Origin: an uncultured Chloroflexia bacterium
GTDB lineage: Bacteria > Chloroflexota > Dehalococcoidia > DSTF01 > JALHUB01
Direction of reading: 5' to 3'
Assembly (NCBI GenBank): GCA_963703345.1
Contig: OY969814.1
Span: forward strand, 1,568,001-1,632,000
DNA length: 64,000 nucleotides
The notes beneath the pieces were generated by a model that did no database searches, was not told the origin of the DNA, and was given only the letters and a program-made list of their open reading frames with translations. The position numbers and the translations under genes were made by a program. This document shows, piece by piece, positions 2,935 to 48,147 of the stretch; positions within the stretch are counted from its first letter, which is position 1; every line of letters starts with the position of its first letter.

Positions 2935-2961
2935 TACAGACCACGCTACACCTGCCGATAC
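2935..2961 (+). promoter_or_regulatory. Putative sigma28 (FliA/WhiG-type) promoter upstream of the ECF sigma gene
   Basis: TACA-N15-GCCGATAC versus consensus TAAA-N15-GCCGATAA. Confidence 0.6.
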
Positions 2962-3045
2962 TTACCTAGGTGAACTCCCTAAGGAATACGACCTAAGGGG
3001 GAGTGCCGAGACGTATCGCCGATTCCGTCCGGGAAAGAGATCGCA

Positions 3046-3612
3046 GTGCTCAAACTGGACATCCCGCCGGTAACCGAAGAGAGGATGCTCGTCCAGCGGG
3101 CCATTGCTCGCGACAGCGAAGCCTTCGCCGAGCTCTACGACCGACACGTCGTACGCGTCTACCGGCACATCTACTACATAATCAACGACCAGAAAGAAGC
3201 TGAAGACCTTACCGCCCAGACCTTCCTCCAGGCCTGGGAGGCGGTGGGCCGTTTCCAACCTAGGGGTGCTCCCTTCGCATCGTGGTTGCTGCGCATCGCT
3301 CACAACCTGGCCGTCAGCCATCTGAGGGCCCGAAAGGGGGATGCGCAGCTCCACGAGTCGCTTGTCGACGACGGCCTTCCGCGAAACCCGGAAGCCGTCG
3401 TCGAACGACAGGCCGACGAAGAGCGCGTCCGACAAGCCGTCCTCCGCCTCGGCGACGACCAGCGGCAAGTCATCATCCTCCGCTTCGTCGAAGAACTGGA
3501 CTACAAAGAAGTCGCCGAGATTCTCGGCAAGAGCGTGGCTGCGGTGCGCGTCATCCAGCACCGCGCCCTGTGCGCCCTGCGCAAGATCATGAAGGTGGAA
3601 GAAGTTGCCTAG
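3046..3612 (+). CDS. ECF-family RNA polymerase sigma factor
   Basis: Region 2 (AEDLTAQTFLQAW...FASWLLRIAHN) and region 4 (YKEVAEILGKSVAAVR). Confidence 0.92.
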   Translation: MLKLDIPPVTEERMLVQRAIARDSEAFAELYDRHVVRVYRHIYYIINDQKEAEDLTAQTFLQAWEAVGRFQPRGAPFASWLLRIAHNLAVSHLRARKGDAQLHESLVDDGLPRNPEAVVERQADEERVRQAVLRLGDDQRQVIILRFVEELDYKEVAEILGKSVAAVRVIQHRALCALRKIMKVEEVA

Positions 3613-3871
3613 AATCGTCGAAGCACTTGCCGACTGCCTGGAAGCGATGCGTCAGGGCGAAGATATGGAGGTCTGTCTGGCGATGTACCCACAGTACCGC
3701 GCCGAGCTCACACCATTGTTGCAGATCGCGAGCTTACTGCGGCCGCTGCCACCGGAGATAGCGCCCTCGTTCGCCTTCAAGGAGCGCACCAAAGTGCAGA
3801 TCCTGGAGGGCCGACGGGCGCAAGAGGGCTCGTCCCTTGCGCCGGACCAGCGGTCGGGCAAGTTCCGATGA
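3605..3871 (+). CDS. Putative short soluble anti-sigma factor (Chloroflexi-type N-terminal domain)
   Basis: Overlaps the sigma stop codon; LADCLEAM...CLAMYPQYRAELTPLLQIA resembles N-termini of Chloroflexi ECF partners; no TM segment. Confidence 0.6.
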   Translation: MPRIVEALADCLEAMRQGEDMEVCLAMYPQYRAELTPLLQIASLLRPLPPEIAPSFAFKERTKVQILEGRRAQEGSSLAPDQRSGKFR

Positions 3872-4084
3872 AACACCACGGCGCGACACCTCGCGGCGTC
3901 CCCGTGGCGATATGACAAAAACCGGCCAGAAATGGCTTTAAGGCTCAGCAAAGGAGGTGAAGCCGAAAGACTGACGAACACCCGGAGACCATCCGCCTGG
4001 CGCCCTCGCGACAAGTGTCGCCCCGCCCGAGGGCCAGGCGGTGAAGCAAGCTCGACAACACCTTAGACAACTAGGAGGAAACAA

Positions 4085-4273
4085 ATGCAGTTCATCAACG
4101 ACGCCATTCTCCGGCTCTACTGCTGGATGAAGGATGAGAAGGCTCAGACCATGGCCGAGTACGGCTTGATCCTGGCCCTCGTATCGGTCGTCGCGATCGT
4201 GGCCCTGATAACGGTCGGCGATCAGCTGAAGACTGTCTTCGGCGACATCAAGAACGCCCTTACACCTGCATAG
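4085..4273 (+). CDS. flp: Flp/type IVb pilin (probable major pilin)
   Basis: EKA|QTMAEYGLILALVSVVAIVAL Flp motif; strong AGGAGG RBS. Confidence 0.92.
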   Translation: MQFINDAILRLYCWMKDEKAQTMAEYGLILALVSVVAIVALITVGDQLKTVFGDIKNALTPA

Positions 4274-4491
4274 AACCGACTCACGATCGGAAGTCGACGA
4301 CAACATTTGGGTGGGGAGCACGTGTCTCCCCACCCAATCTCATTCGAGAAGGCAAGATGCTCGGCCGGTCGTCAAACAACCGCGGCCGGTGCTGGATGTG
4401 GTCATCGGCGGCTCCTGACGAACAGGCGCTGCTCGACTCTGCCCGCGCCCCGTTTTGCGACGCCACTGAACGCGGCCAAGCGCCCTAGGGT

Positions 4492-4519
4492 TCAAGAGAT
4501 ACGTTCAATCGGCCGATAC
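4492..4519 (+). promoter_or_regulatory. Putative sigma28-type promoter for the cpaB-tad operon
   Basis: TCAAG-N15-GCCGATAC. Confidence 0.65.
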
Positions 4520-4610
4520 TCTTAATTGGGTAAGGCACCCATAGATCAAACGAAAACCAAGTCCAGCCGCTCTCGTGGCCGGACATCTACGCGAAACTGG
4601 AGGTAGCCCC

Positions 4611-5438
4611 ATGGCTGGAGCAGGAGCCCGTGGGCCGGTGAGCAGGATCAATCGACGCTTCCTGCTGCTGACAATCGTATTCGCCCTCTTGAGCGCGGTA
4701 TTGGTCTACGCCGCCATCTCCCGCGGCAGCACCAGCAAGGAAGCCGAGTCAGCGTCCATGACCGGCTTCACAGTGATCGCCAAGATGGACATACCCGCGC
4801 GTACCCAGATTACGGCCGAAATGCTGGCACTAAAGGAAATCCCGCTTAGCGTTCGCCCGGCTACGGCGCTCACCAGCATTGACGACGCTGTCGGCAAAGT
4901 GACACGCTACCCGATTGGCGCCGACGAGGAGGTGACCCCGAACAAGATCGTCTCCCTCCAGGGAACCCAGACGACCGATTCGCTCTCGTTCGTCGTCCCA
5001 AAGGGGATGCGCGCGATCTCCATTCAGGCCGATCAGGTCCTGAGCGCCGGCGGCCTCGTGCTCCCCGGCGACTACGTTGACATAATGGGCGTGCTCAAAG
5101 GAACGAAACCCGACGGCACCACCGTAGAGAACTACGTCGTCAAGACGATACTTCAGAACGTCCAGGTGCTGGCGGTGGCCCAAAAGATCGCCGACATTGC
5201 GGTAGGCAGCGGCACCGGTTCGACCTCCGCAAGCGCTGATAGCTCTAGCGGCTCGTCGGCCAAGCCCAATCCGGAAGCGACGACCCTGACGATTCTCGCT
5301 TCGCCCGAGCAGTCGGAGCTGCTCTTCCTCGCTGAGTCCAACGGCACCCTGAGAGCCGTGGTTCGCGGCTTCGGCGACGGCGACGTGACCCAGGTGCGTC
5401 CCATCTTCCAGAACGAACTCTCGCCGGCCGCGCCTTAG
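4611..5438 (+). CDS. cpaB: Flp pilus assembly protein CpaB/RcpC
   Basis: N-terminal TM, SAF domain, GMRAISI...GGLVLPGDYVDI...LQNVQVLAV; ATG at 4611 chosen after GGAGG. Confidence 0.92.
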   Translation: MAGAGARGPVSRINRRFLLLTIVFALLSAVLVYAAISRGSTSKEAESASMTGFTVIAKMDIPARTQITAEMLALKEIPLSVRPATALTSIDDAVGKVTRYPIGADEEVTPNKIVSLQGTQTTDSLSFVVPKGMRAISIQADQVLSAGGLVLPGDYVDIMGVLKGTKPDGTTVENYVVKTILQNVQVLAVAQKIADIAVGSGTGSTSASADSSSGSSAKPNPEATTLTILASPEQSELLFLAESNGTLRAVVRGFGDGDVTQVRPIFQNELSPAAP

Positions 5439-5444
5439 CCCTGT

Positions 5445-5470
5445 TCAGCGAAGATACTCGCATCCGATAT
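5445..5470 (+). promoter_or_regulatory. Possible internal sigma28-type promoter upstream of cpaE
   Basis: TCAG-N14-TCCGATAT. Confidence 0.4.
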
Positions 5471-5486
5471 AGGAACAAGGAAGTCG

Positions 5487-6674
5487 ATGGCAAGAACCCC
5501 GGAAGCCGTAATCATTGACCCTGATCTCAGCGCCCGCGCCGACGTTAAGCGAGCGCTCACTCTGGCTCACTTCACGGTGTCCGGCGAGTCCGGTTACGGC
5601 ATAGAAGCAGTAACCGTCGCTAACGAGAACGTTCCCGACGTCTTCATCGTCAGCGTCGAGGAACCGGTCGCCCGTGCCCTGCAAACGATGCAGTCCCTCG
5701 GCGACGCCCTGCCCGACACACCGATAATCGCCTACTCTTCGCTTGCCGACGCCGCTTCCGTCCGCCGTGCCATGGTTGCCGGCGCCCGCGACTATTTGAT
5801 TAAGCCCGTCAAGCCCGAAGACCTGACCCGCGCTATCTACGGCGTCATGGAGCAGGAAGAACGGCGGCGCATGCGCGCCAGCGGCGAGCGCCAGGAGACT
5901 GCCGCCAGGGGCACGGTCATCACCGTCTTCGGCGCCAAGGGCGGCATCGGCAAGACGACGATTTCCACCAACCTGGCGACGGCCCTCGTCCGCTCGACGA
6001 ACAGCTCCGTCGTCCTCGTCGATATGGACACGCGATTCGGCGACGTAGCCATCATGATGGACATCGCCGTCGAGCGGAGCATCGCCGATCTCGCCCGTCG
6101 CGTCGACACCATGGACCGCGATACTATTCACGATTTCCTGGTGCGCCATCACAGCGGCGTCATGATCCTGCCCGCGCCCCTTCACCCGACCGAGTGGCGC
6201 AACGTCACGCCGCACCAGATCAGCAAGATCATCGACCTTCTCGCCCAGACGCACGACTACGTGATCGTGGACACGCCGGGCACGTTCAACGAGATTGTGG
6301 CCGCCACGTTGGAGGCGGCCAGCCTCATCCTGCTCGTCACGAGCATGGATATCGCCAGCATCAAAGACACGGCCCTCACCCTGGAGATGCTCCAGAGCGC
6401 CGCCGTCTCCGAAGACAAGGTCAAGCTCATGATCAACCACTCCACGGCCGCCAACACGCTGCGAGAGGACGACGTGGAGCGCGTTCTGGAGTACAAGGTG
6501 TTCTGGCGCATCCCGCATGACCTCAACGTCGCCACAAGCACGCAGCTTGGCCAGCCAGTCGTCATCACGAAGCCGTACGCCAGGGTCTCGCGCAGCATCT
6601 CTGAGCTCGCCGGCGCCCTCAGCGGCACGGTCAGCGAGAAGAAGGGTTTCCTGGAGAGGTTCCTCGGACGTTGA
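5487..6674 (+). CDS. cpaE: Pilus assembly protein CpaE/TadZ (receiver-like domain plus MinD/ParA ATPase)
   Basis: N-terminal REC-like domain (GARDYLIKP); deviant Walker A KGGIGKT. Confidence 0.9.
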   Translation: MARTPEAVIIDPDLSARADVKRALTLAHFTVSGESGYGIEAVTVANENVPDVFIVSVEEPVARALQTMQSLGDALPDTPIIAYSSLADAASVRRAMVAGARDYLIKPVKPEDLTRAIYGVMEQEERRRMRASGERQETAARGTVITVFGAKGGIGKTTISTNLATALVRSTNSSVVLVDMDTRFGDVAIMMDIAVERSIADLARRVDTMDRDTIHDFLVRHHSGVMILPAPLHPTEWRNVTPHQISKIIDLLAQTHDYVIVDTPGTFNEIVAATLEAASLILLVTSMDIASIKDTALTLEMLQSAAVSEDKVKLMINHSTAANTLREDDVERVLEYKVFWRIPHDLNVATSTQLGQPVVITKPYARVSRSISELAGALSGTVSEKKGFLERFLGR

Positions 6675-6715
6675 CCCGATGACACAATCGTACAGCAGAT
6701 GGAGCGGATGAGACG

Positions 6716-8077
6716 ATGACTCAATTCCAATGGCAACCCCGAAGAACAGGCGTCGACGGCGCTGAAGGCGGCTTCAGACGGACCAGCAGCTCTTCCAGCC
6801 TGCTTCAGACCAGCGAAGCCCTCACCGAGCTCAAGTACAAGCTCCACCAGCGCCTCATCGAGGAGCTGGACCCGGCCAAGCTCGACGGGCTCGACCCCAT
6901 CAAAGCCCGCGAAGCCGTCGAGACCTCGGCGCGCACGCTGATCTCCCAGGAAATGCCGGGAATCGTTGGCGTAACGCGCGACGAGCTCGTTTCCGCCGTC
7001 GCGGACGAAGTGCTCGGCCTCGGACCGATCGAGCCCATGGTCCGGGACAAATCCATCTCGGAAATAATGGTCAACGCCCCGGACACAATCTTCTTCGAGA
7101 AAGAGGGGCGGCTGTATCTGAGTCCCATCCGCTTCCGAGACTCTAACCACATCCAGCGCATCGCCGACCGCATCATCGCGCCGCTCGGCCGCCGCGTCGA
7201 CGAGTCGTCGCCCATGGTCGACGCGCGTCTCGCCGACGGCTCCCGTGTCAACATAATCATCCCGCCCGTCGCGCCCAAGAGCCCGACGATCACCATCCGA
7301 AAGTTCCGCGAAGACAAGATGACGGTGGAGGACCTCATCGCCACCGGCACGATGGTCCAGGAGTTGGCGGAATTCCTGCACGCCTGCATCCAGGCGAAGC
7401 TGAACGTCGTCATTTCCGGCGGTACCGGCACCGGCAAGACGACCTTGCTGAACGCCCTTTCCGCCTTCATCCCGGAAACCGAACGCATCATCACCATCGA
7501 GGACCCGACGGAGCTGCGGCTGCAGCAGGGCCACGTCGTCAGCCTGGAAGCGCGGCCGCCCAGCCTGGAAGGGAAGGGCGAAGTCACGCAGCGCGACCTC
7601 GTCCGCAACTGCCTCCGTATGCGCCCCGACCGCATCCTCGTCGGCGAGGTGCGCGGCCCAGAGGCCTTCGACATGATGCAGGCCATGAACACCGGCCACG
7701 AAGGCTCACTCACCACCGTCCACTCCAACTCGCCGCGCGACGCCCTCGCCCGCATCGAGAACATGATCCTGATGGCCGGCCTTGAGCTGCCAATGCGCGC
7801 CATCCGCGAGCAGATCTCGTCCGCCATCCATCTCGTCATCCAGATCAGCCGGCTCCCCGACGGCACGCGCAAGATCACCTGCGTCGCGGAGATCACCGGC
7901 ATGGAGGGCCAGGTCGTCACGATGCAAGACCTCTTCCGCTACGAGCAGAAGGGCATTGACAGCGAGGGCCACGTGGTCGGCGAATTCCGCTTCACCGGCA
8001 TTCACCCGCAGTTCGCCGAGAAGTTCAAGTTGGCCGGCATCCAGTTGCCGCAGGACATCTTTGGCCCTGGGTGGTGA
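6716..8077 (+). CDS. cpaF: Pilus assembly ATPase CpaF/TadA
   Basis: GGTGTGKTT Walker A, RMRPDRILVGEVRG, AMNTGHEGS. Confidence 0.95.
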   Translation: MTQFQWQPRRTGVDGAEGGFRRTSSSSSLLQTSEALTELKYKLHQRLIEELDPAKLDGLDPIKAREAVETSARTLISQEMPGIVGVTRDELVSAVADEVLGLGPIEPMVRDKSISEIMVNAPDTIFFEKEGRLYLSPIRFRDSNHIQRIADRIIAPLGRRVDESSPMVDARLADGSRVNIIIPPVAPKSPTITIRKFREDKMTVEDLIATGTMVQELAEFLHACIQAKLNVVISGGTGTGKTTLLNALSAFIPETERIITIEDPTELRLQQGHVVSLEARPPSLEGKGEVTQRDLVRNCLRMRPDRILVGEVRGPEAFDMMQAMNTGHEGSLTTVHSNSPRDALARIENMILMAGLELPMRAIREQISSAIHLVIQISRLPDGTRKITCVAEITGMEGQVVTMQDLFRYEQKGIDSEGHVVGEFRFTGIHPQFAEKFKLAGIQLPQDIFGPGW

Positions 8078-8081
8078 TCGT

Positions 8082-9080
8082 ATGGACATGCTAGCGCTCG
8101 CGGCGGCTCTCTCGGTGATGTTGACGGTCTGTCTGCTGCTGACCGCTGCCTACGCCTTTTCCGGCGCCGACCGTAACCGACTCGTAGTCACCAGGCTCGA
8201 GCACGTCGTCAACCGTACGCCTGGGCAAGCAGGGCTGGACGACGTCATTGCCCTGAAGCAGGAGCGCATGGGTCTTTTCCCCCTCCTGACCAGCATCTTC
8301 GCCAGCGGCGAATGGGCCCAGCGCATCACGACCGACCTGGAGCGCGCCGAGCTCAAGCTGCACGTCGGCGAGTACCTAGCCATTCGCATAACCTGCGCTC
8401 TCGTCCTCTTCGCCATCGCGATGGTCATCATGGGACCGGGCGTTTTCGGTTTGCTGGGGGGGGGCGTGGCGGCGCTTGTCGGCTACACGCTGCCCAAGTT
8501 CATGATCAATCGCCGGCTCAAGAAGCGCCTGATGACGTTCGACGACCAGCTCGTCGAAGCGCTGGGCCAAGTAGCCAACGCCTTGCGCTCGGGCTTCGGC
8601 CTCCTCCAGGCGATGGACCTGGCCGCCGAGCAATTGAAGGACCCGCTCGCAATCGAGTTCAAGCGCACTATCAACGATATCAACGTCGGCTCCAGCTTCG
8701 AAGATGCGCTCATTGCCCTGAACCAGCGCATGATGAGCAACGACCTTGACATTGCCGTCACGGCCATCCTCATTCAGCGCACCGTCGGCGGCAACCTGGG
8801 CGAAATCCTGGACACCGTCGCTAACACCATGCGCGAGAGAGCCCGCATCAAGGGCGAGCTGCGGAGCCTGACCGCCTCGCAGAAGATGTCGGGCTATGTC
8901 GTCGGCGGGCTGCCCGTCGCCATAATCGGCATGCTGCTGGTCGTGGGCCAGCTCACCGGCGAGAGCTACATTGCCACGCTATTCACGACGAACGCCGGTC
9001 GCCTCGCGCTCATGGCCGCCGCGGGGCTCGAAGGCATGGGGATCATGATCATCCGCAAGATCCTGGCCATCGAGGTCTAA
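8082..9080 (+). CDS. tadB: Tight adherence protein TadB (T2SS F family)
   Basis: ALRSG...IQRTVGGNLGEILD motif with TM helices; start set at ATG 8082. Confidence 0.9.
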   Translation: MDMLALAAALSVMLTVCLLLTAAYAFSGADRNRLVVTRLEHVVNRTPGQAGLDDVIALKQERMGLFPLLTSIFASGEWAQRITTDLERAELKLHVGEYLAIRITCALVLFAIAMVIMGPGVFGLLGGGVAALVGYTLPKFMINRRLKKRLMTFDDQLVEALGQVANALRSGFGLLQAMDLAAEQLKDPLAIEFKRTINDINVGSSFEDALIALNQRMMSNDLDIAVTAILIQRTVGGNLGEILDTVANTMRERARIKGELRSLTASQKMSGYVVGGLPVAIIGMLLVVGQLTGESYIATLFTTNAGRLALMAAAGLEGMGIMIIRKILAIEV

Positions 9081-9092
9081 GGGAGGGAGAAA

Positions 9093-10007
9093 ATGGCACT
9101 ACTGGCGGCCGCTTCGGTCTTTGTCACTGTCGTGGTCTTCGCTTTCTCATTCCGCGCAGGCCCGAAGGGCGATTCAGTGCGAGCCCGCGTTGCCGGTCTC
9201 TCCACCTCCCACGCCCACGAGAGAGGTCAGCCGACGCTGTCCTTCGGCGACCGCATCGTAGTGCCGCTCGTCGATGGCCTCACGAACAAGGTTTTCGCCA
9301 TTCTGCCGCACGGCTTCATCATTCGGCTGAGGACCCGCCTGATGCGGGCCGGCGAGCCCGTCACCGCCGAAGGCTTCATCATGATCACCCTGGTCGCGAG
9401 CGGCGTTCTGGGCGGCCTGCCGTTCCTTCTGATGATCTCCGCGAAGGGGGCGCTGAACGTAAAGATGCTCGGCCTCATAGTGCTGATGGCCGGCATGGGC
9501 GCCTATTTGCCCACCATGTGGCTATCGAACCGTTTGCGCCAGCGCCAGAACATGATCATCAAGAGCCTGCCCGATAGCTTCGACATGATCACGACGTGCG
9601 TCGAAGCTGGCCTGGGGCTCGATGCCGCTCTGGCCCGCGTCGCTGAGAAGGTGAAAGGCCCCTTCTCTGAAGACCTGTCCATCACCCTGCACGAGATCAG
9701 CATGGGTCGCAATCGCGCCGAATCCCTGCGCGATCTTGCCGACCGCACCGGCGTCGCCGATCTCAGCCTCTTTGTAAATGCTATAATCCAGGCTGAACAG
9801 ATGGGTACCAGCATTGGCCAGGTGCTGCGCGTGCAATCAGAGCAGATGCGCGTGCGACGCCGTCAGCGAGCGGAAGAGAAGGCGAACCAGGCGCCGGTGA
9901 AGATGGTCTTTCCGCTCGTCATGTGCATCCTTCCCGCCCTGTTCGTCGTCATCATGGGCCCGGCCGCCATTCAACTCTACCAGACGATATCGAGCCGAGG
10001 CACGTGA
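9093..10007 (+). CDS. tadC: Tight adherence protein TadC (T2SS F family)
   Basis: LPDSFDMITTCVEAGLGLDAAL...EEKANQAPVKMVFPL. Confidence 0.92.
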   Translation: MALLAAASVFVTVVVFAFSFRAGPKGDSVRARVAGLSTSHAHERGQPTLSFGDRIVVPLVDGLTNKVFAILPHGFIIRLRTRLMRAGEPVTAEGFIMITLVASGVLGGLPFLLMISAKGALNVKMLGLIVLMAGMGAYLPTMWLSNRLRQRQNMIIKSLPDSFDMITTCVEAGLGLDAALARVAEKVKGPFSEDLSITLHEISMGRNRAESLRDLADRTGVADLSLFVNAIIQAEQMGTSIGQVLRVQSEQMRVRRRQRAEEKANQAPVKMVFPLVMCILPALFVVIMGPAAIQLYQTISSRGT

Positions 10008-10351
10008 GAATCCAGAACACGACTCGCGAGACCCAGGTCGCCGACCGCGCCGTCCCGGCAAACAACCCCTGGAGGCGACTCGTTGGCCTGCTCAACCGCT
10101 CCCACCTGGAGCCCGGCGAAGGGCTGGTGCTCATGCCCGGCAGTGCCATCCACATGTTCTTCATGCGCATGGCCATCGACGTCATCTTCGTGGACAGGGA
10201 CGGCCTGGTGCTGAAGACGGCCGCAAACGTCAAACCCTGGCGCGTCGTCCTGGCGCCACGCCGCTCGCGCTACACCATCGAGCTGCCCGTCGGCGCCATC
10301 GAACAGTCCGCCACCGTCCCCGGCGACGTCCTCGATCTGAGCGCCTCCTAG
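10004..10351 (+). CDS. DUF192 family protein
   Basis: RLVGLL...IHMFFMRMAIDVIFVD...IELPVG; GTG start overlaps the tadC stop. Confidence 0.85.
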   Translation: MRIQNTTRETQVADRAVPANNPWRRLVGLLNRSHLEPGEGLVLMPGSAIHMFFMRMAIDVIFVDRDGLVLKTAANVKPWRVVLAPRRSRYTIELPVGAIEQSATVPGDVLDLSAS

Positions 10352-10439
10352 CCTTCGACCCTTCGACGCGTTAACCTTTCGCCCGCCCCGAGCGTTATGA
10401 TCACGTAAGAACTTTCAGGTCCCCGCCGGGAGGCCCAAG

Positions 10440-19558: not shown

Positions 19559-19563
19559 GCGAC

Positions 19564-25511: not shown

Positions 25512-25543
25512 GCACGCATTATACCGTATCCGGAGAGCCTTGC

Positions 25544-25990
25544 CTAGCGGCGGATCGCCCGCTGCATCTGGCGCTCCGCCTCCCGCTTAGCTATCGCCTC
25601 CCGCTTGTCGTGACTCCGACGCCCCCGCGCCAGCGCCAGCTCCAGCTTCGCGCGACCGTTCTTCAGATACATGCGAAGCGGGACCAGCGTCAGCCCCTTC
25701 TCCTCCAGCGCCGCGCTCAGCTCCCGCATCTCCGACTTGTGCAGCAGCAGCTTGCGCCTCCGCGTCGGCTCGTGATTGAAGCGACCCGCCGCCGGGTACT
25801 GCGCGATGTGCGCGCTCTGCAGCCACAGCTCCCCGTCGTCCGGCCGCGCGAACGCCTCCCGCAGGCTGACCCGTCCCTCCCGGACCGACTTTATCTCCGT
25901 TCCCGTGAGGACAAGGCCCGCCTCCACCGTCTCCAGGATGTGGTAGTCGTGCAGCGCCTTGCGATTGACGGCGATAACCTTCTCCGCCAC
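25544..25990 (-). CDS. smpB: SsrA-binding protein
   Basis: NRKALHDY...EAGLVLTGTEIKS...RKLLLHK...DKRE. Confidence 0.97.
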   Translation of the reverse strand: MAEKVIAVNRKALHDYHILETVEAGLVLTGTEIKSVREGRVSLREAFARPDDGELWLQSAHIAQYPAAGRFNHEPTRRRKLLLHKSEMRELSAALEEKGLTLVPLRMYLKNGRAKLELALARGRRSHDKREAIAKREAERQMQRAIRR

Positions 25991-27436: not shown

Positions 27437-28369
27437 CTAGCCGGCCCAATGCGCCGGCGCCCTTCGGCCCCTGACCGTCCCTCGGCGCTGGCGAGAGGCG
27501 TAGAGTGCCCTGTCTGCCCGCGCCAGCAGCTCCTCGCTCGACTTCGCATCGTCAGGATAAGTGCCCACGCCGGTGGAGACTTCCAGTGCCACGTCCACCA
27601 GGATCCCCGCGCCCCAGTCGCGTCGCCTCGAAACCATCTGACGTATCTTCGTCGCAATCGACCCCGCGGCCTCGGCGTCCGTCTCCGGCAGGATAAGAAC
27701 GAACTCGTCGCCGCCGTAACGCGCGGCAGTGTCGCAAGACCGCACGTTTTCCGCGAGAAGGCGCCCCAGGAAGCTCAACAACTCATCGCCGGCCAGGTGC
27801 CCGTAGCGGTCGTTGACCTCCTTGAAGCCGTTGACGTCCAGCATTATGACGCTCAGATGGCGACCGTAACGACGCGCACGCTCGAATTCAGAGCGAAGCT
27901 GATCATGGAAGTAGCGGTGATTGTACAGGCCCGTCAGGTTGTCGTGATAGGCCAGGTGGTGCAGGCTCTCGCTCAACCGCTCGAGGTGCTCCGAGTACGA
28001 CCGCTCGAGTTTCAGGTTGGCTCGCCCGGCCTGCCTGGCCAGAAGCAGCGCGTACAGCGCTACAAGGCCGACCAGGCCCGTCTCCGACACCTCGTACGCG
28101 TGAGACGGCAGCACCCATCGTCCAACCAGCGACCAAACGAGAAGCGCGGCGAACACCAGGATGCCGATGCCGCGCAAGAGCCAACCTGCGCTGCCCGATT
28201 CTACGCGCCCCCGTTCGAGTCCGGCTTCGTCCGGATCGTCCGCCGTCGCCGGGGAGCTGGCGCCTCTCATCGCTCGTCCGATCCTTCCGGGCAGCGTGAA
28301 GCTAGGTCGCGACGGCATTCGCGTAAGGCTTTTCGACCGCAGACCGGCGAGACAGGGCCGCCGCGACAA
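27437..28369 (-). CDS. Membrane-bound diguanylate cyclase (GGDEF); true start may be at 28270
   Basis: Two TMs, DNLTGLYN, RSCD I-site, intact YGGDEF. Confidence 0.88.
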   Translation of the reverse strand: MSRRPCLAGLRSKSLTRMPSRPSFTLPGRIGRAMRGASSPATADDPDEAGLERGRVESGSAGWLLRGIGILVFAALLVWSLVGRWVLPSHAYEVSETGLVGLVALYALLLARQAGRANLKLERSYSEHLERLSESLHHLAYHDNLTGLYNHRYFHDQLRSEFERARRYGRHLSVIMLDVNGFKEVNDRYGHLAGDELLSFLGRLLAENVRSCDTAARYGGDEFVLILPETDAEAAGSIATKIRQMVSRRRDWGAGILVDVALEVSTGVGTYPDDAKSSEELLARADRALYASRQRRGTVRGRRAPAHWAG

Positions 28370-28519
28370 GCGGATTCAGAGTCAACATAACAGCGCCTTC
28401 GGTAGCCCGGCTGCCGTAGCCCGCGGCACGCGGACCCTAGGCCCGTTGCTTTGCGCCCCAACCTTTCGGCTGGTTTGCCCTTGTCGAGCACTCGCGGAGA
28501 ACACTTTGCTCTCTATGGA

Positions 28520-28547
28520 TTATCGGCCGCTGTCGCAGCCGGCTTGA
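28520..28547 (-). promoter_or_regulatory. Putative sigma28-type promoter for the GGDEF gene
   Basis: TCAAG-N15-GCCGATAA on the minus strand. Confidence 0.7.
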
Positions 28548-28643: not shown

Positions 28644-29195
28644 CTAGCGGTGTCGCGTAAGCGCGAGCTCCTGATTGCTACCCAGGCGGTCCAGCCGCTC
28701 CACGACCCGCAGGTCGCGTCGCCACCGTCGCCTGCCGAGATAATGATGCGCCTCATTCGAAGAAGCGAAGTGGCTTGGCAACGTGACGAGTGAAGCTCCC
28801 ACAGCGATGGCCGTCAACGGCAAGGCGGCCCAGAGCGCCACGCCAGCCGCCAGCGCTACGACGGCGAGTCCGACGGAGGCCGTGGACGCCAGCATCCCCT
28901 GCCAGGCCGGCAAACTCCAGAACGAAACCTCAATCGACACCCGCTTTGTCACTTGCGGTTCAGGAGCAGCCATCCGCGCTAGACTGGCTCTCTCGCAATC
29001 GTAAGCAGCCCGCGAGTCCGGTGAGCCGAGCACCTCGAACGCGCGGTTTAGCTCTGCGAGGCGATGTTCTACAAAGGCATCCTCGTCCATCGCCGCCTTG
29101 TACTTGCGCGCCAGACACCAGTATGACTGAACGACCATCGTCTGATCGGCATTCGGATGGAGTTGCAGGACCTGGTAGTAGTCGCGTTCTTCCAT
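28644..29195 (-). CDS. J-domain-like membrane protein lacking HPD
   Basis: DYYQVLQL...LARKY...LNRAFEVLGSPDSRAAYD; C-terminal hydrophobic helices. Confidence 0.7.
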   Translation of the reverse strand: MEERDYYQVLQLHPNADQTMVVQSYWCLARKYKAAMDEDAFVEHRLAELNRAFEVLGSPDSRAAYDCERASLARMAAPEPQVTKRVSIEVSFWSLPAWQGMLASTASVGLAVVALAAGVALWAALPLTAIAVGASLVTLPSHFASSNEAHHYLGRRRWRRDLRVVERLDRLGSNQELALTRHR

Positions 29196-29301
29196 GCTTC
29201 GCCTTCAGATTCGTCATCGGAGCTTTGCAGGCATTTACTATAACGCGACTCCCTCGCGAAGGTTTCACACCTTTTCGTCCGAGCGCGAGAGGCGGTCAGA
29301 A

Positions 29302-39862: not shown

Positions 39863-39866
39863 CGCG

Positions 39867-43537: not shown

Positions 43538-43970
43538 GCCACGATACCTCTGTTTGATTCTCGACCGGTCAGCGCCTCACTGACAGCCCACCCCGACGCG
43601 CCCATCAATCTCCATATGAAGGGCCGAGAAGTGAGTGAGGCTACGCTTTGAACCGGGCCAGCGGAACGGATGCGAATGCAGCGAAAGCGTTGCGAGCCGG
43701 CCTGGAGGACGTGAAACCGAAGAGATCCTGCCTCGGCTAGGCTGCTTGACCACCGCTCATCGCATGCGACGCAGCCAATGGCGTCTGAATCCCACCCCTC
43801 GGTCCCACGATAGCAGGTCGCCGCCAATTCTTCCAAGACGGCGACATCGTCCGTTTGGTAGATTTTTCGGCTCCTCAGGATATGTTTCAGGAAGTGTCCC
43901 GTTATTGCTTTGGTGGTTTGTATAGGCCACCGTCCCGCCACCGCGGGTCAGCAGCTTAACCAGAGAAAAA

Positions 43971-44069
43971 GGCACCGACAAAGGCAAACTCCTCGAAAGA
44001 GGGGGACGCAAAGCCGCAGACCTAAAGCTTGCTGTCGCAGAAGCTATGGCCGCTGGGCTTCCGAAAGCC
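43971..44069 (+). promoter_or_regulatory. c-di-GMP-I (GEMM) riboswitch
   Basis: GGCAAAC-TCCTC-GAAA-GAGGG-GGACGCAAAGCC...CCTAA...ATGG receptor...TTCCG; G at the G20-equivalent position. Confidence 0.9.
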
Positions 44070-44132: not shown

Positions 44133-44170
44133 GCCGTCGTCGGTGACGCTGCCGACGACGGCGCTTTTTG
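44133..44170 (+). terminator. Intrinsic terminator (riboswitch expression platform)
   Basis: GCCGTCGTCGG...CCGACGACGGC followed by GCTTTTTG, upstream of the sigma start. Confidence 0.75.
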
Positions 44171-44207: not shown

Positions 44208-44933
44208 ATGAGAGAAGACCGGAATCAGATGATCGTCAACCACCTGCCCTTGGTGGCTTTCGTGGTGAACCGCATGCCCAGCGAGGGTACGGGCGCTGTC
44301 GGCATCGACCGCGAAGACGCCATGAGCTACGGCGTCGAGGGGCTCATCCACGCCGTCGACGCCTATGACCCCGAGCGCGGGACCACCTTCGCCAGCTTTG
44401 CCATCCAGCGGATCCGCGGCTCGGTGCTGGACGCTGTTCGCAAGCAGGATCCGCTGCCGCGCTCACTGCGCAGGAACGCCAAGGAGATCGAGCATGCGTC
44501 GCAGGAGTTGGCGGTACAGTTGGGCCGCTGGCCGACCCGGAAGGAGATCGCATTCAAGCTGGGAATCCCCCTATCGCGGCTCCAGTACCTTCTCAGCCGA
44601 GCAAGCTCGCGGCTTGTCTCTCTCGAGTACTCGCTGGAAGACCGTCCGAACTACGGTGCCGGCCATGCGCTGGACCCGGTGGATGAGGACATCCTATCCG
44701 ACCCGGCGCGCGCGGCTGAGCAAAAAGCGGCGCTCTCGCAGCTTTCGCAGGCCGTGAACTCTCTTTGTCGAAGGGACAGGGACATCCTTCGCCTGCGTTA
44801 CGAGGAGTGCCGGCCATTCCACGAGATCGGCGAGATGCTGGAGCTGTCGGAATCGAGGGTCTGTCAGCTTCACAAGCGGATCATCACCCTTCTGCGTCGG
44901 GAGATGCGTCCCCAACTGGAAGAGGCGGCTTGA
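44208..44933 (+). CDS. fliA: FliA/WhiG family sigma factor (sigma28)
   Basis: GLIHAVDAYDPERG..FASFAIQRIRGSVLD...DPLPRSLR; EIGEMLELSESRVCQLH. Confidence 0.88.
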   Translation: MREDRNQMIVNHLPLVAFVVNRMPSEGTGAVGIDREDAMSYGVEGLIHAVDAYDPERGTTFASFAIQRIRGSVLDAVRKQDPLPRSLRRNAKEIEHASQELAVQLGRWPTRKEIAFKLGIPLSRLQYLLSRASSRLVSLEYSLEDRPNYGAGHALDPVDEDILSDPARAAEQKAALSQLSQAVNSLCRRDRDILRLRYEECRPFHEIGEMLELSESRVCQLHKRIITLLRREMRPQLEEAA

Positions 44934-44983
44934 CCTTGAGACGCGCAAGGCTTTGGTCTAGACATTTCGCTCTCGATGCAGAC

Positions 44984-45011
44984 TCATCACTGCGGTCTAA
45001 ACTGCCGATAA
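44984..45011 (+). promoter_or_regulatory. Putative sigma28-type promoter for the HD-GYP gene
   Basis: TCATC-N15-GCCGATAA (perfect -10, weaker -35). Confidence 0.55.
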
Positions 45012-45174
45012 TACTGCGAAGAAGGATGCTCAACCTCCATCCTGCCTTCGAATCGCTTTCTTCCGGACGGTTGTGTCCTGAGGGGAACGAATGTCCGGTT
45101 ACGGGAATCTGTCTGTTCTGCACGAGATGTAGTGCGCGGGCTGCCCCAAGCGCCCGCGAAGTGAGTCTTATGTC

Positions 45175-46659
45175 ATGCAGAATGGTGTAGAGCCAGAAGA
45201 CGAATCGAACGGCAGCAAGACGGAACGCCCGCCGCTAGTGTTGGTCCATTCCACGGCCGGTCCCGCCGCGCATGCTGACGCTGATCGCCCCCATGTTCCG
45301 GCGCCCACTTCCCTGCCGGTACAGGCGCGCATCTTCTCAATCGTCGTCTTCCTCTCGGGCCTGGCGCTCATAGGCTACTACGCGCCGCAAGTGTCTCATT
45401 CCGGCCTCGTAGGGCTCATCCTACTGGGGCTTATGGCCGCCGCTTCGGAACGGTTGAGCATCATCGTTTACGGCGAGAGCTGGGTCTCAATAAGCTTCGT
45501 CTGTCTCTTCGCCATTGCAGCACTTTACGGCCCCCCAGGCATCGTCGTGGCGACACCCCTCGCGATTCTGAGCCTGCACTTTCCGCGGCGGATGCTTCCA
45601 GATCGGCTGATGTTCAACTCGGGCAACTCGCTCCTCGCCGATGTTGCATCAGCACTGATCCTCACGTCTTTCCTGGCGGGCGGCTCGCAAATCACGCTGT
45701 CCGCAAGAGTGTTTGGCGTTGCCGTAGCTGCCGCGGCCGCGAACTATGGCGTGAGGTCTGTCCTGATATCGACTGTGGGCGGCTTGGCGTCGGGTCAACG
45801 CCCGTGGACGTTCTGGCGGCAGAACTTCCAGTGGCTGCTCCCCCACTACATCCTCTTCGGTTTCCTTGGTTTGGCGCTGGCGGTAGCTTATCAGCAGATC
45901 GGCGTCACCGGCCTGCTCGCCTTTGCCGCTCCGCCGCTGATGATGCGTCTTGCCATGAAGCAATACGTCGACAAGACTACTCGCAGCGTCGCGATGCTGA
46001 GGCGCAAGAACGACCAGCTCTTGAAGGCAAATCGCGAAATCCTGGCGATGAGCGCGCGCCTCAAAGAGACATATGACGCCACCCTGGAGGCGCTAGCGGC
46101 GGCGCTGGACGCCAGGGACAGCGAGACCGGCGGGCACTCCAGCCGCGTCACGGTCTACACAATGGATATGGCGCGGGAACTGGGAATAGAAGAACGGAGC
46201 GACGTGTGGCTGGATATCGAGCGCGCCTCGCTGCTTCACGACGTAGGCAAGATCGGCGTTTCCGACGCTATCCTGAACAAGCCTGGCCCGTTGACCTCTG
46301 AGGAGTGGCAACAGATGAGAAAGCATCCGGCCATAGGCTACGATATGCTGAAGGACGTAAAGTTCCTTTCAACTGCGGCGGAGATCGTCTACGCGCACCA
46401 CGAAAGATTCGACGGCAAAGGCTATCCGGTCGGCCTCCAGGGCGAAGACGTACCCCTAGGCGCGCGCATATTCGCCGTCGCTGACGCTTTCGACGCGATG
46501 ACCTCGAACAGGCCCTATCGCCGCGCCCTTTCGGTGGACAAGGCGCGGGAGGAGATCCTGGGCAATTCGGGCAGTCAGTTTGATCCCAGAGTGGTTCAGG
46601 CTTTCCTGCAGTGCCTTCAGGGCTGGGCGGATGACTTGAGGGAAAGGCAGGCCGCCTAG
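45175..46659 (+). CDS. Membrane-bound HD-GYP cyclic dinucleotide phosphodiesterase
   Basis: Multi-TM N-terminus; LHDVGKIG, HHERFDGKGYP, VADAFDAMTSNRPYR. Confidence 0.9.
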   Translation: MQNGVEPEDESNGSKTERPPLVLVHSTAGPAAHADADRPHVPAPTSLPVQARIFSIVVFLSGLALIGYYAPQVSHSGLVGLILLGLMAAASERLSIIVYGESWVSISFVCLFAIAALYGPPGIVVATPLAILSLHFPRRMLPDRLMFNSGNSLLADVASALILTSFLAGGSQITLSARVFGVAVAAAAANYGVRSVLISTVGGLASGQRPWTFWRQNFQWLLPHYILFGFLGLALAVAYQQIGVTGLLAFAAPPLMMRLAMKQYVDKTTRSVAMLRRKNDQLLKANREILAMSARLKETYDATLEALAAALDARDSETGGHSSRVTVYTMDMARELGIEERSDVWLDIERASLLHDVGKIGVSDAILNKPGPLTSEEWQQMRKHPAIGYDMLKDVKFLSTAAEIVYAHHERFDGKGYPVGLQGEDVPLGARIFAVADAFDAMTSNRPYRRALSVDKAREEILGNSGSQFDPRVVQAFLQCLQGWADDLRERQAA

Positions 46660-46985
46660 CAGGCAACGAATTGCCTGCGCTCCGATGCGATGACCGTTGA
46701 GGCGAGGAAGAGAGGAGTGTCGTAGGCCCCTGGACGATGACGAGTCTGGCTGGACCTATGCGAATCGTCCGAAGGCCAAGACGGTCGGTGCTATCGAGTC
46801 AATGCCCTGGGTTTGTTGAGCCGGCCCGCTTTTCAGGAGGGCGCGGGCGCCATCTGTAGCTCAAAGAGTCTTCTGAGGCGTCCCTCCTAGAACCAGTGCA
46901 TCTTCTTCATGGTGGCCTCCTGGCAGTGCGCGGCACACGTGGGTGCCGTCCGGATGTGGTTCCTTCCTCTCCACTCGCCTCAACA

Positions 46986-47035
46986 ACATACCGACCCGTC
47001 GGTATGTATTATGACACCCGCTTGTAACTTGTCAA
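46986..47035 (-). promoter_or_regulatory. Sigma70-type promoter overlapped by a TetR-like operator palindrome
   Basis: TTGACA-N16-CATAAT (47035-47008) and ACATACCGAC-CC-GTCGGTATGT (46986-47007). Confidence 0.7.
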
Positions 47036-47208
47036 GGTTCAAATAGGGCCAACCTGAAGCTCAAAGGGAAACGCAGACCCCAGGATACCCGCGAGGAACC
47101 CGACGGTGCAGGAGACACGCCCTAGTCTAAGGGCACAAGGGCTGGCAGGATCAGCGTTCTTGAGCGACTGGTGGGGGGCGAGTTGCTGTCAGGGATGCGA
47201 GGGAAAGC

Positions 47209-48093
47209 TTATCCAGAGGCGCTCGTCCAGCGTTCGCGGCGGCGGTCTCGGTCTTGCTTCGCGGTCTCCAGATTGTGACGCGCTTGCACGAGCAGGTCGA
47301 GAGGGTTGTTGTCGGCGTCTTGAGCTGAGGCGATTCCGGAGCAGACGCCCACCCATAGCGTTATCGTCTGGCCTTCCACGTTCACGGCAACCGGCTTTCG
47401 CGTCACATAACGCTCCAGGCGGCGCAGGAACTTCGAGGCGTCCTCCTGGCTGCATTCGAGCAGGATCAGAGCGAACTCGTCGTCGCCGAGGCGGGCAGCG
47501 ATGTCGGATGACCGCTTTGTTAGCTCCAGCAGGTCCGCTATGTGTTTGAGTACGGCATCTCCCGCCGCCTCGCCATACGCCTCGTTGACCGAAGACAGGT
47601 TGTTCACGTCGAAAACGGCGAGAGAGAGCGTGGAGGCAGTGCGCTGCATGCGCTTGAACTCGTCGCGAAGGCGCAGCCGGAAGTACTCCTCGCCCGGCAG
47701 ACCGGTCACGTCGTCGCGCATCGACGGCGAGAGCGTCCTTTCCAAGCCTTCCGCCGTCTTCTTCGCCCGGTAGATGGCGAAGAGACTGGTGATTACGACC
47801 GCAACCATCAGAAGCTCGACGGCCGCTGCCAAATGCGGAGCCTGCCTTCTCTCATCGAGGAACGAAAGCGAGGCGCCGGCGAGCACAGATATGAGCGCAG
47901 CGATGAGATATCGCCGCAGATCCTGCCATACCTGCGCCCTGCCCGCCGGTGGGCCTTTGGAAGAGAGCTTCTGCAACGTGAGCGCGCGCGTATCGCGCCA
48001 GTCTTCGCTGGCGTCAGCGCGAAGCTCATCTTGAAGCGGCCTCGGCAGGGAATGAGTATCCTCTGGTTCGGAGATGTGTCTGTCTTCGAGCAA
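47209..48093 (-). CDS. Membrane-bound GGDEF-domain protein (GDDEF variant)
   Basis: Two TMs, DDVTGL, RSSD I-site, LGDDEF. Confidence 0.85.
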   Translation of the reverse strand: MLEDRHISEPEDTHSLPRPLQDELRADASEDWRDTRALTLQKLSSKGPPAGRAQVWQDLRRYLIAALISVLAGASLSFLDERRQAPHLAAAVELLMVAVVITSLFAIYRAKKTAEGLERTLSPSMRDDVTGLPGEEYFRLRLRDEFKRMQRTASTLSLAVFDVNNLSSVNEAYGEAAGDAVLKHIADLLELTKRSSDIAARLGDDEFALILLECSQEDASKFLRRLERYVTRKPVAVNVEGQTITLWVGVCSGIASAQDADNNPLDLLVQARHNLETAKQDRDRRRERWTSASG

Positions 48094-48120
48094 GCCGATC
48101 CTCCAACACCGTCAGTTAGA

Positions 48121-48147
48121 TTATCGACCGGCCGGACGACAGGTTTA
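48121..48147 (-). promoter_or_regulatory. Putative sigma28-type promoter for the GDDEF gene
   Basis: TAAA-N15-GTCGATAA on the minus strand. Confidence 0.7.

Follow-up and report, generated by a model that had tools for sequence, protein, structure and literature searches.

The window, that is, the whole stretch of 64,000 nucleotides that was analysed, contains a Tad pilus locus, a FliA/WhiG-like sigma28 gene, genes of c-di-GMP metabolism, c-di-GMP riboswitches, an intrinsic terminator and conserved promoter-like sites of two types, a sigma28 type and a BldN type (Table 1). Profile matches agreed with the gene identities given in an earlier note on this DNA, namely an ECF sigma factor, CpaB, CpaE, a GGDEF protein, an HD-GYP protein, a GDDEF protein and the FliA/WhiG-like sigma factor. 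The Tad locus encodes Flp, CpaB/RcpC, CpaE, CpaF/TadA, TadB and TadC; the gene starts from cpaB to tadC were taken from our own gene caller. The flp gene has no promoter-like site of its own, and a hairpin is located downstream of it at positions 4307-4337.

The Tad-linked ECF gene is present in 59 of 61 genomes of the order, and the best PDB match of its product is 6DXO. Judged by its sequence, this protein is BldN-like and not a member of the BldN family (ECF121), since its score is below the TIGR02952 cut-off. The following gene encodes a product of 88 amino acids, which has no Pfam match and is patchily distributed among relatives. It shows 45% identity over 38 amino acids (E 7e-10) to the longer protein encoded beside the other BldN-like ECF sigma factor of the genome (ECF-B), in which a DUF5667 domain was detected. 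The single-pass membrane anti-sigma factor at the +1 position that characterizes ECF121 was not found at the Tad-linked ECF gene.

Of the two proteins with GGDEF-like domains, the membrane diguanylate cyclase has the GG[D/E]EF active site and the GDDEF protein does not, its orthologues showing SDDEF, GGDEF or SGDEF. The sequence suggests that the GDDEF protein is possibly a receptor or a weak cyclase; a literature search, covering parts of the texts, returned nothing on the activity of GDDEF-type active sites. No EAL or PilZ domains were found in this genome by domain search.

Table 1. Positions of the genes, RNA elements and promoter-like sites within the window.
Feature	Position	Strand	Basis or remark
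BldN-type site TGTAAT-N16-CGTTAT	503..530	-	20.6 bits; divergent from Tad locus
Sigma28-type promoter, predicted ECF/anti-sigma-like/flp unit	2934..2961	+	CTACAG-N14-GCCGATAC
ECF sigma factor	3046..3612	+	Best family BldN; TIGR02952 145.7 bits, cut-off 206.45
Short soluble ORF, anti-sigma-like	3605..3871	+	Resembles N-terminus of DUF5667 membrane anti-sigma factor
Flp pilin	4085..4273	+	PF04964
Sigma28-type promoter, cpaB-cpaE-cpaF-tadB-tadC operon	4492..4519	+	Matrix conservation
Tad assembly genes cpaB, cpaE, cpaF, tadB, tadC	4638..10007	+	Pfam, NCBIfam
Site preceding cpaE	5445..5470	+	Unsupported as conserved promoter
Membrane diguanylate cyclase	27437..28255	-	Intact GGDEF, RxxD I-site; start codon uncertain
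c-di-GMP-I(-GGC) riboswitch between sigma28-type promoter and cyclase	28397..28488	-	70.4 bits
Sigma28-type promoter, riboswitch-cyclase unit	28520..28547	-	At least 12 bits in 18/30 loci, antisense 0
DnaJ-domain membrane protein	28644..29195	-	PF00226; directly upstream of cyclase unit
BldN-type promoter-like site before DnaJ-domain gene	29240..29267	-	At least 12 bits in 12/14 gene-bearing loci
BldN-type ECF promoter-like site upstream of sigma28 riboswitch	43878..43905	+	Weak -35 box GGATAT here
c-di-GMP-I riboswitch aptamer before sigma28 gene	43973..44065	+	77.9 bits, covariance model
Intrinsic terminator in sigma28 leader	44133..44170	+	12-bp stem, -23.8 kcal/mol, U tract
FliA/WhiG-like sigma28 (paralogue 1)	44208..44933	+	TIGR02479 185.5 bits, cut-off 189.6
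Sigma28-type promoter, HD-GYP gene	44984..45011	+	-10 box in 29/30 loci, antisense 3
Membrane HD-GYP phosphodiesterase	45175..46659	+	HD and HHExxDGxGYP motifs intact
GDDEF protein	47209..48093	-	RxxD-type I-site, non-canonical active site
Sigma28-type promoter, GDDEF gene	48121..48147	-	TAAA-N15-GTCGATAA

Sigma28-type promoter sites in the window and the genome

The earlier note had listed six strings as fits to the sigma28 consensus, and all six were recovered at their positions, between genes and in sense orientation to the next gene. Five of them, preceding the ECF, cpaB, GGDEF, HD-GYP and GDDEF genes, differ from the published sigma28 consensus, TAAA-N15/16-GCCGATAA, by no more than two mismatches. 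Such matches are present in 5 of the 44 upstream regions of the window, whereas 150 dinucleotide shuffles gave 0.37 on average and never more than 2. The same five sites recur in relatives. The sixth, before cpaE, does not match the consensus. Of 30 orthologous loci, only four carry a sense site of 12 bits or more and one an antisense site, and none of the 10 closest relatives is among the four; the site was dropped both as a sigma28 promoter and as a conserved promoter.

For the ECF unit, a first strict pattern detected the site in 14 of 30 loci, and a matrix admitting variants of the -10 box detected it at 12 bits or more in 24 of 30 (antisense 0; 18 of 24 among loci kept out of matrix training), many of the added sites being close to the 12-bit threshold. 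The proposed step from sigma28 to the ECF gene is thus borne out at the motif level. Of 28 cpaB loci, many of which belong to the matrix training set, 25 have a site that reaches 12 bits (antisense 0), and in family f4 this site takes the textbook form TAAA-N15-GCCGATAC. For the GDDEF gene, 11 of 13 orthologous loci have a site of 12 bits or more, and all 13 have one of at least 10.9 bits; with distant homologues included, the count is 16/30 (antisense 0). Within the home family, the HD-GYP promoter keeps its -10 box and varies in its -35 box. The -35 boxes of the sigma28-type sites fall into at least two classes, a CTAC type and a TAAAG/TCAAG type.

Outside the window, a matrix trained on other genera identified sites upstream of 6 of 18 c-di-GMP genes, as compared to 31 of 1399 other genes (p=3e-6), and the published consensus gave 4/18 versus 16/1399 (p=8e-5). 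The remaining 12 of the 18 c-di-GMP genes carry no site, and the idea of a closed c-di-GMP circuit was therefore abandoned; the claim that sigma28 transcribes the c-di-GMP enzymes holds, at the motif level, for a part of them, one of which, the GDDEF protein, has the non-canonical active site. A sigma28-type site was also found upstream of csrA in 24 of 30 loci (antisense 0-3). The motif scan gave no support for sigma28 control of a second Tad locus (6 sense versus 7 antisense matches in 21 loci) or of a type IVa locus, which showed no signal.

Matches to the consensus across the whole genome are modest in number, with 25 sense and 15 antisense in 1461 upstream regions. Counted without regard to the -35 box, the -10 box shows no intergenic enrichment across the genome (52 occurrences, 50 expected by length), and it was discarded as evidence by itself; the sigma28 signal thus requires both boxes. 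This lack of enrichment would fit an explanation of the sites as chance matches or as -10 boxes of the housekeeping sigma factor (GATAAT/GATACT), as would the occurrence of CGATAAT and CGATACT behind TTGACA at housekeeping genes. We regard this explanation as extremely improbable: no sigma70-type promoter was found in positions 1-10600 of the window, the sites share a conserved GCCG prefix and a TAAA-like -35 box at sigma28 spacing, and they are enriched before c-di-GMP genes.

Two sigma28 paralogues in an order without flagellin

For the sigma28 protein encoded in the window (paralogue 1), TIGR02479 is the best family by far, although the score is under the cut-off, and regions 2, 3 and 4 are all present. 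The earlier note had seen no flagellar gene in the window. Flagellin was found in none of the 61 genomes of the order, and a profile search in which the positive controls matched detected no FlhA, FlgM or FliW in this 95.9%-complete single-contig genome. The genes that mark a flagellar FliA-FlgM regulon, for flagellin, the export gate and FlgM, were thus not found here. In a quick version of a tree, both sigma28 paralogues of the genome were placed outside the flagellin-linked clade; of the 14 loci labelled flagellum-linked, one (L206) has no flagellin match on its contig. A search for the anti-sigma factor RsiG (PF22802), published as limited to Actinomycetota, gave no match here and none in the control genomes either.

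The second sigma28 gene (paralogue 2) is located elsewhere in the genome, next to csrA, and is present in 58 of the 61 genomes. Its product passes the TIGR02479 cut-off with 201.7 bits and has a more canonical region 4.2 than paralogue 1. These features, together with the split of the -35 boxes into at least two classes, could mean that the promoters are read mostly by paralogue 2, or by the two paralogues jointly, in which case the riboswitch-gated sigma factor would be a mere modulator and the pilus regulon would not be gated by c-di-GMP as a whole. The conserved site upstream of paralogue 2 itself argues against such a role, as it differs in shape, with an ATA[G/T]G -35 box and a -10 box mostly without the leading GC, and scores below 10 bits in 30 of 30 loci. 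Moreover, paralogue 1 has two of the target genes as its neighbours across the order. We consider a leading role of paralogue 2 rather unlikely, and paralogue 1 is taken below as the reader of the sigma28-type sites.

Predicted control of the sigma28 gene by a riboswitch and by an ECF-type promoter

In agreement with the earlier note, the sigma28 gene lies behind a c-di-GMP-I riboswitch. The two riboswitches of the window score above the gathering threshold (RF01051/RF03167) and are located 5' of genes. The one upstream of paralogue 1 accompanies the sigma gene in all 29 loci scanned in four families but in none of three loci of family f2, and the cyclase riboswitch was found in 17 of 20 related loci scanned. 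A third c-di-GMP riboswitch is located just left of the window, with the gene for a Thr-Pro-repeat surface protein. Rfam gave nothing above threshold for the long flp leader or for those of the second Tad locus.

The terminator of the sigma28 leader is present in 24 of 30 loci and was not found in four loci of family f5. Its 5' arm can pair instead with the 5' end of the aptamer. This alternative helix averages 6.33 bp, as compared to 4.29 bp in shuffles (maximum 4.88 of 500), and 5.7-6.8 bp within families versus 4.2-4.6 bp across them, with compensating sequences specific to each family. In a looser test based on duplex energy, 28 of 100 shuffles did as well as the leader of this genome, a non-significant result. 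The leader folds into the antiterminator when free and into the terminator when the aptamer is constrained, and all 7 prefix folds shown have an antiterminator that engages the 5' end of the aptamer and the ligand-pocket G. The helix and the folds together predict a riboswitch that turns transcription OFF, and pili would thus form when c-di-GMP is low, and not as part of an adhesion state at high c-di-GMP. In the classical adhesion programme, sigma28 and pili would instead rise with c-di-GMP through an ON switch or a translational switch. Class I c-di-GMP riboswitches may be ON switches, as Cdi-1-1 rises according to a table of PMC6200980; in addition, family f5 lacks the terminator and the energy gaps between the alternative folds are small. 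The consistent use of the aptamer 5' end and ligand-pocket G, and the family-specific compensation, make this alternative highly unlikely.

New in this analysis is a BldN-type ECF promoter-like site, conserved among relatives, that precedes the riboswitch of the sigma28 gene. The site is at the same position in 30 of 30 loci, in 28 with a spacer of 16 (pattern) and in two with a spacer of 17, and matches the BldN motif in the part of PMC2375139 that describes it. With the matrix, for which 21 of the 30 loci served as training data, 26 loci reach 12 bits or more (antisense 0); the score is only 9.6 bits in this genome and 17-18 bits in all three loci of family f2, which was held out. The site at 503..530 is the highest-scoring BldN-type site in the genome. 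It sits beside the Tad-linked ECF gene, and points towards the third riboswitch and the surface protein gene. Of 15 related loci, 13 have such a site on the same strand and none has one on the opposite strand. At the DnaJ-domain gene, the best antisense score was 6.6 bits. Since the motif has no strand bias genome-wide (13 sense versus 12 antisense), no ECF regulon can be called from this genome alone.

Two ECF sigma factors are candidates for reading the promoter at 43878. ECF-B, which is accompanied in this genome by its DUF5667 membrane anti-sigma factor, is present in 45 of 61 genomes, has a promoter of its own (GTTAAC-N16-CGTT) similar to the 43878 type, and has a BldN-like region 4, which by eye is nearer 6DXO than that of the Tad-linked ECF. 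If ECF-B were the reader, an envelope signal would be passed one way through ECF-B and sigma28 to the Tad-linked ECF. Yet ECF-B is absent from 13 of 13 genomes of family f5, where the best matches in five genomes were the Tad-linked ECF itself, and the four f5 sigma28 loci examined retain the 43878-type site. The location of the best BldN-type site in the genome next to the Tad-linked ECF gene also speaks against ECF-B, as does a BldN-type site directly before the Tad-linked ECF gene in one genus (2 genomes). We judge ECF-B to be an unlikely reader. The residues of ECF region 4 are nearly invariant, and the -35 box drifts. From these sequence comparisons, the Tad-linked ECF is the best candidate reader, and it is likely that the two sigma factors feed each other.

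A proposed circuit, its precedents and its significance

We think it probable, on balance, that a riboswitch-gated, non-flagellar sigma28 drives the Tad locus, csrA and some c-di-GMP enzymes, and that the Tad-linked ECF transcribes the sigma28 gene in return. The sigma28 regulon of the earlier note would thereby be retained for the Tad locus and some c-di-GMP enzymes in a non-flagellated lineage, without the cpaE site and with the one-way cascade replaced by a reciprocal one. At low c-di-GMP, pairing of the aptamer 5' end with the 5' arm of the terminator would allow read-through and synthesis of sigma28, which would transcribe the ECF/anti-sigma-like/flp unit and the cpaB-tadC unit. Transcription of the HD-GYP gene would keep c-di-GMP low (positive feedback), and that of the riboswitch-gated cyclase would raise it (delayed negative feedback). 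The ECF sigma factor would re-start the sigma28 gene, a second positive feedback, and would also act on the surface-protein unit next to the Tad genes. The piliated state would end once c-di-GMP rises, which can also happen through cyclases that do not belong to the regulon. The outcome would be a latch or a pulse that gives a piliated state at low c-di-GMP.

More tentatively, the arrangement may be a bistable differentiation switch of this soil and peat order of Dehalococcoidia, in which a BldN-like ECF and a WhiG-like sigma28 each drive the gene of the other, the riboswitch replaces protein sensors of c-di-GMP, Tad-piliated cells at low c-di-GMP are the output, and CsrA has been kept from a flagellar regulon to tune pilin; we hold this to be possible rather than probable. 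No transcription of whiG by BldN, or of bldN by WhiG, is known.

By analogy, every link has a precedent, in Rubrobacter WhiG, Bdellovibrio FliA-Tad and the Clostridioides difficile riboswitch-SigD system; the comparisons draw on excerpts of the papers cited. That sigma28 drives pili and DGC/PDE genes rather than flagella has already been published for Rubrobacter. In the unicellular Rubrobacter radiotolerans, sigma28 promoters of the WhiG-RsiG system precede type IV pilus genes and five DGC/PDE genes, c-di-GMP switches the sigma factor off and feedback loops have been proposed (PMC8325347, PMC12871210). The window resembles this system in the regulon of pilus and DGC/PDE genes, here at the motif level, and in the predicted c-di-GMP-off logic. 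It differs in phylum, in the riboswitch on the sigma gene, the Tad pili, the probable ECF back-link and the two paralogues, and RsiG was not found in our search, which had no positive control. The circuit would be the WhiG-RsiG logic of Rubrobacter with an RNA brake replacing the anti-sigma factor.

FliA of Bdellovibrio drives a Tad/flp operon, with reporter evidence from E. coli lacking fliA; unlike here, the organism is flagellated, its FliA also drives flagellins, and the excerpt of PMC5430801 mentions neither a riboswitch on fliA nor an ECF loop. In C. difficile, the class I riboswitch Cdi-1-3 on the flgB operon with sigD terminates transcription and lowers sigma28 (PMC6200980). There, sigD is part of a flagellar operon of 23 kb, and a class II switch raises pili with c-di-GMP, whereas here the sigma gene itself carries the riboswitch, flagella are absent and pili are predicted to fall. 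Streptomyces BldN/RsbN (ECF121) shares with the Tad locus a BldN-like ECF, a short +1 gene and a CGTAAC-N16-CGTTGA-like promoter (PMC2375139, PMC7826278), and Streptomyces WhiG is likewise under negative c-di-GMP control. Unlike BldN, the Tad-linked ECF does not reach the cut-off of the BldN family and its +1 product is short and soluble; according to the supplement of PMC7826278, ECF121 is restricted to Actinobacteria. Judged from abstracts, no description of such an arrangement was found for Dehalococcoidia or Chloroflexota.

A 2026 preprint names WhiG as the only sigma factor known to be under direct c-di-GMP control. The arrangement described here would be a second, independent route to sigma28 under c-di-GMP control without flagella, through an RNA switch and not an RsiG anti-sigma factor, in a class in which flagella have been lost repeatedly according to the excerpt of PMC10284905. 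The predicted formation of pili at low c-di-GMP reverses the usual adhesion rule, and the reciprocal activation of ECF and sigma28, if true, would be a natural two-sigma latch. The analysis provides a first regulatory map for this uncultured order of Chloroflexota.

Sigma28-type sites and their conservation

All six sigma28-type promoter-like sites described in an earlier note (upstream of the ECF sigma, cpaB, cpaE, GGDEF cyclase, HD-GYP and GDDEF genes) were recovered in place and in the right orientation, and the gene identities were confirmed with Pfam and NCBIfam. Genes were called with a purpose-built dicodon-based caller, and the start codons are therefore approximate. The genome consists of one contig of 2.28 Mb (95.9% complete), and close relatives show 91–95% identity in the sigma protein. 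Five of the sites fit the criterion for Rubrobacter WhiG sites, which allows up to two mismatches to TAAA and GCCGATAA (section 14 of PMC8325347), the exception being the cpaE site. Such matches occurred in 5 of the window's 44 upstream regions; 150 shuffles gave 0.37 on average and never more than 2.

Because the six sites had been hand-picked, enrichment was tested on held-out data, using a matrix trained with 47 sites, none of them from the home genus, and a threshold of at least 12 bits. In this genome-wide scan, which the earlier note had suggested, sites preceded 6 of the 18 c-di-GMP (GGDEF or HD-GYP) genes that lie outside the window versus 31 of 1,399 other genes (p=3e-6); one further c-di-GMP gene with less than 20 nt of intergenic DNA was left out. 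The untrained consensus gave 4/18 versus 16/1,399 (p=8e-5). The other 12 of the 18 genes showed no sigma28-type site, the -10 box alone was not enriched in the genome, and consensus matches were in small excess genome-wide (25 sense versus 15 antisense among 1,461 upstream regions).

Conservation was assessed in the best-scoring loci of a 61-genome sample of the order (DSTF01-lineage Dehalococcoidia), in which kin are not independent. Five of the sites were conserved (see the table), whereas the cpaE site was rejected as a conserved promoter (4/30 loci; 0/10 closest relatives). The cpaB promoter of family f4 has the textbook form TAAA-N15-GCCGATAC. An unpublished genome, G045, contributes one locus to the sigma28, cpaB/cpaE, GDDEF-homologue and csrA sets and to both training sets, and none of the claims rests on it. 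The flp pilin gene has no promoter-like site of its own and is followed by a hairpin, suggesting two units, ECF–anti-sigma-like–flp and cpaB–tadC, for each of which we infer one sigma28 promoter. Neither the genome's second Tad locus nor its type IVa locus showed a sigma28 signal.

Conserved sites and other features (W, window; C1, the contig; L numbers, individual loci)
Feature	Location (strand)	Loci with site	Antisense	Remarks
HD-GYP site		29/30 (-10 box)	3	
ECF site		24/30	0	18/24 among loci outside training set
cpaB site		25/28	0	mostly loci used in training
Cyclase (GGDEF) site		18/30	0	
GDDEF site		11/13 orthologues		
csrA site (outside window)	gene: C1:189273-189467 (L231:1374-1568, minus)	24/30	0	
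ECF-type site upstream of paralogue 1 riboswitch	W 43878-43905 (+)			
Divergent BldN-type site beside Tad locus	W 503-530	13/15		held-out
BldN-type site before DnaJ-domain gene		12/14		held-out
Small Flp-like pilin ORF	W 587-739 (+)			no Pfam match; divergent from 503-530 promoter
GGAGG word, flp leader	W 3950-3960			no start codon at a usual distance; shared by most aligned relatives
Trehalose-phosphate synthase-like gene (by reading)	C1:1969159-1970415			strong sigma28 site
Surface protein gene	C1:607872-608840			strong sigma28 site
Small gene before AAA ATPase	C1:1563725-1564111			strong sigma28 site
Response regulator gene	C1:1768212-1768895			strong sigma28 site
Secreted protein gene	C1:2237604-2238620			strong sigma28 site
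Site upstream of paralogue 2	C1:187040-187070 (L152)			conserved, promoter-like ATA[G/T]G-N15-nCGATAC
Third c-di-GMP riboswitch, left of window	C1:1566080-1567985 (L001:18080-19985, minus)			terminator; then 533-aa secreted Thr-Pro-repeat protein, sortase-like C-terminus; tandem aptamers in several relatives
Second Tad locus	C1:2113240-2121173 (L230)			exact BldN-type site ~490 nt before pilin, conserved in three genus members; long leader without Rfam match
Seven-codon ORF with ribosome-binding site, between GDDEF and HD-GYP genes	W 46887-46910, 46990-47035 (minus)			sigma70-like promoter, TetR-type palindrome; only in closest relatives
Related palindrome	W 53623			
Hydrolase/class III nucleotide cyclase genes	W 54279-57012 (minus)			tandem near-duplicates, one apparently split
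smpB, tmRNA directly downstream	W 25159-25990 (minus)			

Two sigma28 paralogues in an order without flagellin

The earlier note had called for a search for flagellar genes and FlgM. Flagellin was found in 0/61 genomes of the order, and the present genome gave no match to FlhA, FlgM, FliW, EAL or PilZ, with positive controls; the genome search for RsiG gave no match, nor did any control genome. Sigma28 was identified in all 61 genomes (57 matching the window protein at E below 1e-70) and a second paralogue in 58. In a class-wide sample of 151 genomes, 20 contained flagellin and 35 sigma28, the latter comprising the 20 flagellated genomes, 9 of this order and 6 others. Thus, retention of sigma28 without flagella characterises this order. 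In a quick tree, both paralogues fall outside the flagellin-linked clade, which indicates that they are old side branches and not a recycled flagellar sigma gene.

The conserved promoter-like site upstream of paralogue 2 differs in shape from the sigma28-type sites above, of which either paralogue may be the reader, and possibly reflects autoregulation with a specificity different from that of paralogue 1. The paralogue 2 gene lies near csrA almost throughout the order, and csrA has its conserved sigma28-type promoter despite the absence of FliW and flagellin. The GGAGG word in the flp leader is a possible CsrA site.

The c-di-GMP riboswitch of the sigma28 gene

Rfam identified a c-di-GMP-I aptamer before paralogue 1, the FliA/WhiG-like gene of the window, a second before the GGDEF gene (at 17 of 20 loci scanned, out of 29) and a third just left of the window. 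The riboswitch precedes paralogue 1 at 29/29 loci from four families of the order, but at 0/3 loci of the fifth, f2; in other orders it was observed at 2/37 sigma28 loci, neither flagellin-linked. Upstream of a different sigma28 lineage in family f6 of another order (L199, L203) lies a c-di-GMP riboswitch, which may represent an independent or an ancestral case.

At 24/30 loci, the paralogue 1 aptamer has a terminator stronger than -12 kcal/mol behind it; none was seen at the f5 loci. The helix between the 15 nt at the aptamer 5' end and the terminator averaged 6.33 bp, as compared to 4.29 in shuffles (maximum 4.88, 500 shuffles). Within-family pairs gave 5.7–6.8 and cross-family pairs 4.2–4.6, since the complementary words in f1 differ from those in f4. 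In all 7 of the nascent-transcript folds listed, the antiterminator also captures the G with which the ligand pocket begins. The leader of this genome is antiterminated in the free fold (-104.1) and terminated in the aptamer-constrained fold (-100.7); in a looser duplex test, it did not reach significance. The placement of the riboswitch supports the proposal that c-di-GMP sets sigma28 levels, and from the folds we read its polarity as a predicted OFF switch, with sigma28 made at low c-di-GMP.

We conclude that the arrangement of riboswitch, sigma28 gene and Tad-locus sites is real. Comparable regulons are known: in Rubrobacter, WhiG drives pili and DGC/PDE genes and is itself controlled by RsiG (PMC8325347), and in Bdellovibrio, FliA drives a Tad operon (PMC5430801). 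In C. difficile, the riboswitch that lowers SigD sits on the flagellar operon (PMC6200980), whereas here it directly precedes the sigma28 gene. Among the mostly open-access papers listed in literature searches, none described a riboswitch that directly precedes a sigma28 gene, a sigma28 Tad/c-di-GMP regulon in Chloroflexota or an ECF–sigma28 mutual loop; target tables in the supplements of the WhiG papers may bear on the last of these.

An ECF-type site before the sigma28 gene and the proposed circuit

About 65–110 nt upstream of the paralogue 1 aptamer, the pattern TGTAAC/T-N16-CGTT was found at 28/30 loci; the remaining two have a 17-nt spacer. At 12 bits or more, the site was present at 26/30 loci and never in antisense, 21 of those loci having trained the matrix. 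It was found at 3/3 loci of the held-out family f2 (17–18 bits), is weak in this genome (9.6 bits) and scored below 10 bits throughout 37 sigma28 loci of other orders. The motif agrees with that of BldN, CGTAAC-N16-CGTTGA (PMC2375139).

The Tad-linked ECF sigma, present in 59/61 genomes, is closest to the BldN family, with a score under the family cut-off. Its closest PDB entry is 6DXO (BldN). The site could instead be read by a second BldN-like ECF (45/61 genomes), whose own promoter resembles it and whose region 4 looks, on inspection, more like that of 6DXO. However, this factor is missing from 13/13 f5 genomes, yet the site is kept at the four f5 sigma28 loci examined; for this reason, we favour the Tad-linked ECF as the candidate reader. 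In the flagellated family f17, a recurring TGT[T/C]AC-N16-CGTCAC upstream of a non-flagellar second sigma28 (L195, L202, L207, L210, L211) hints at a wider spread of ECF control among such sigmas.

The genes, aptamers, terminator and conserved sites of the circuit are observed, and from them we infer promoter activity, reader identities and switch polarity. In the GDDEF protein, the active site departs from the canonical motif (compared with PMC3431978), and the protein may be a receptor. At low c-di-GMP, sigma28 would be made and would drive both Tad units and csrA as well as the genes of the phosphodiesterase, the cyclase and the GDDEF protein, and the Tad-linked ECF would start the sigma28 gene again. 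Two positive loops, via the ECF and the phosphodiesterase, would combine with one negative loop via the cyclase, which would itself be limited by its I-site and riboswitch, so that the circuit might act as a latch or a pulse with outside cyclases as inputs.
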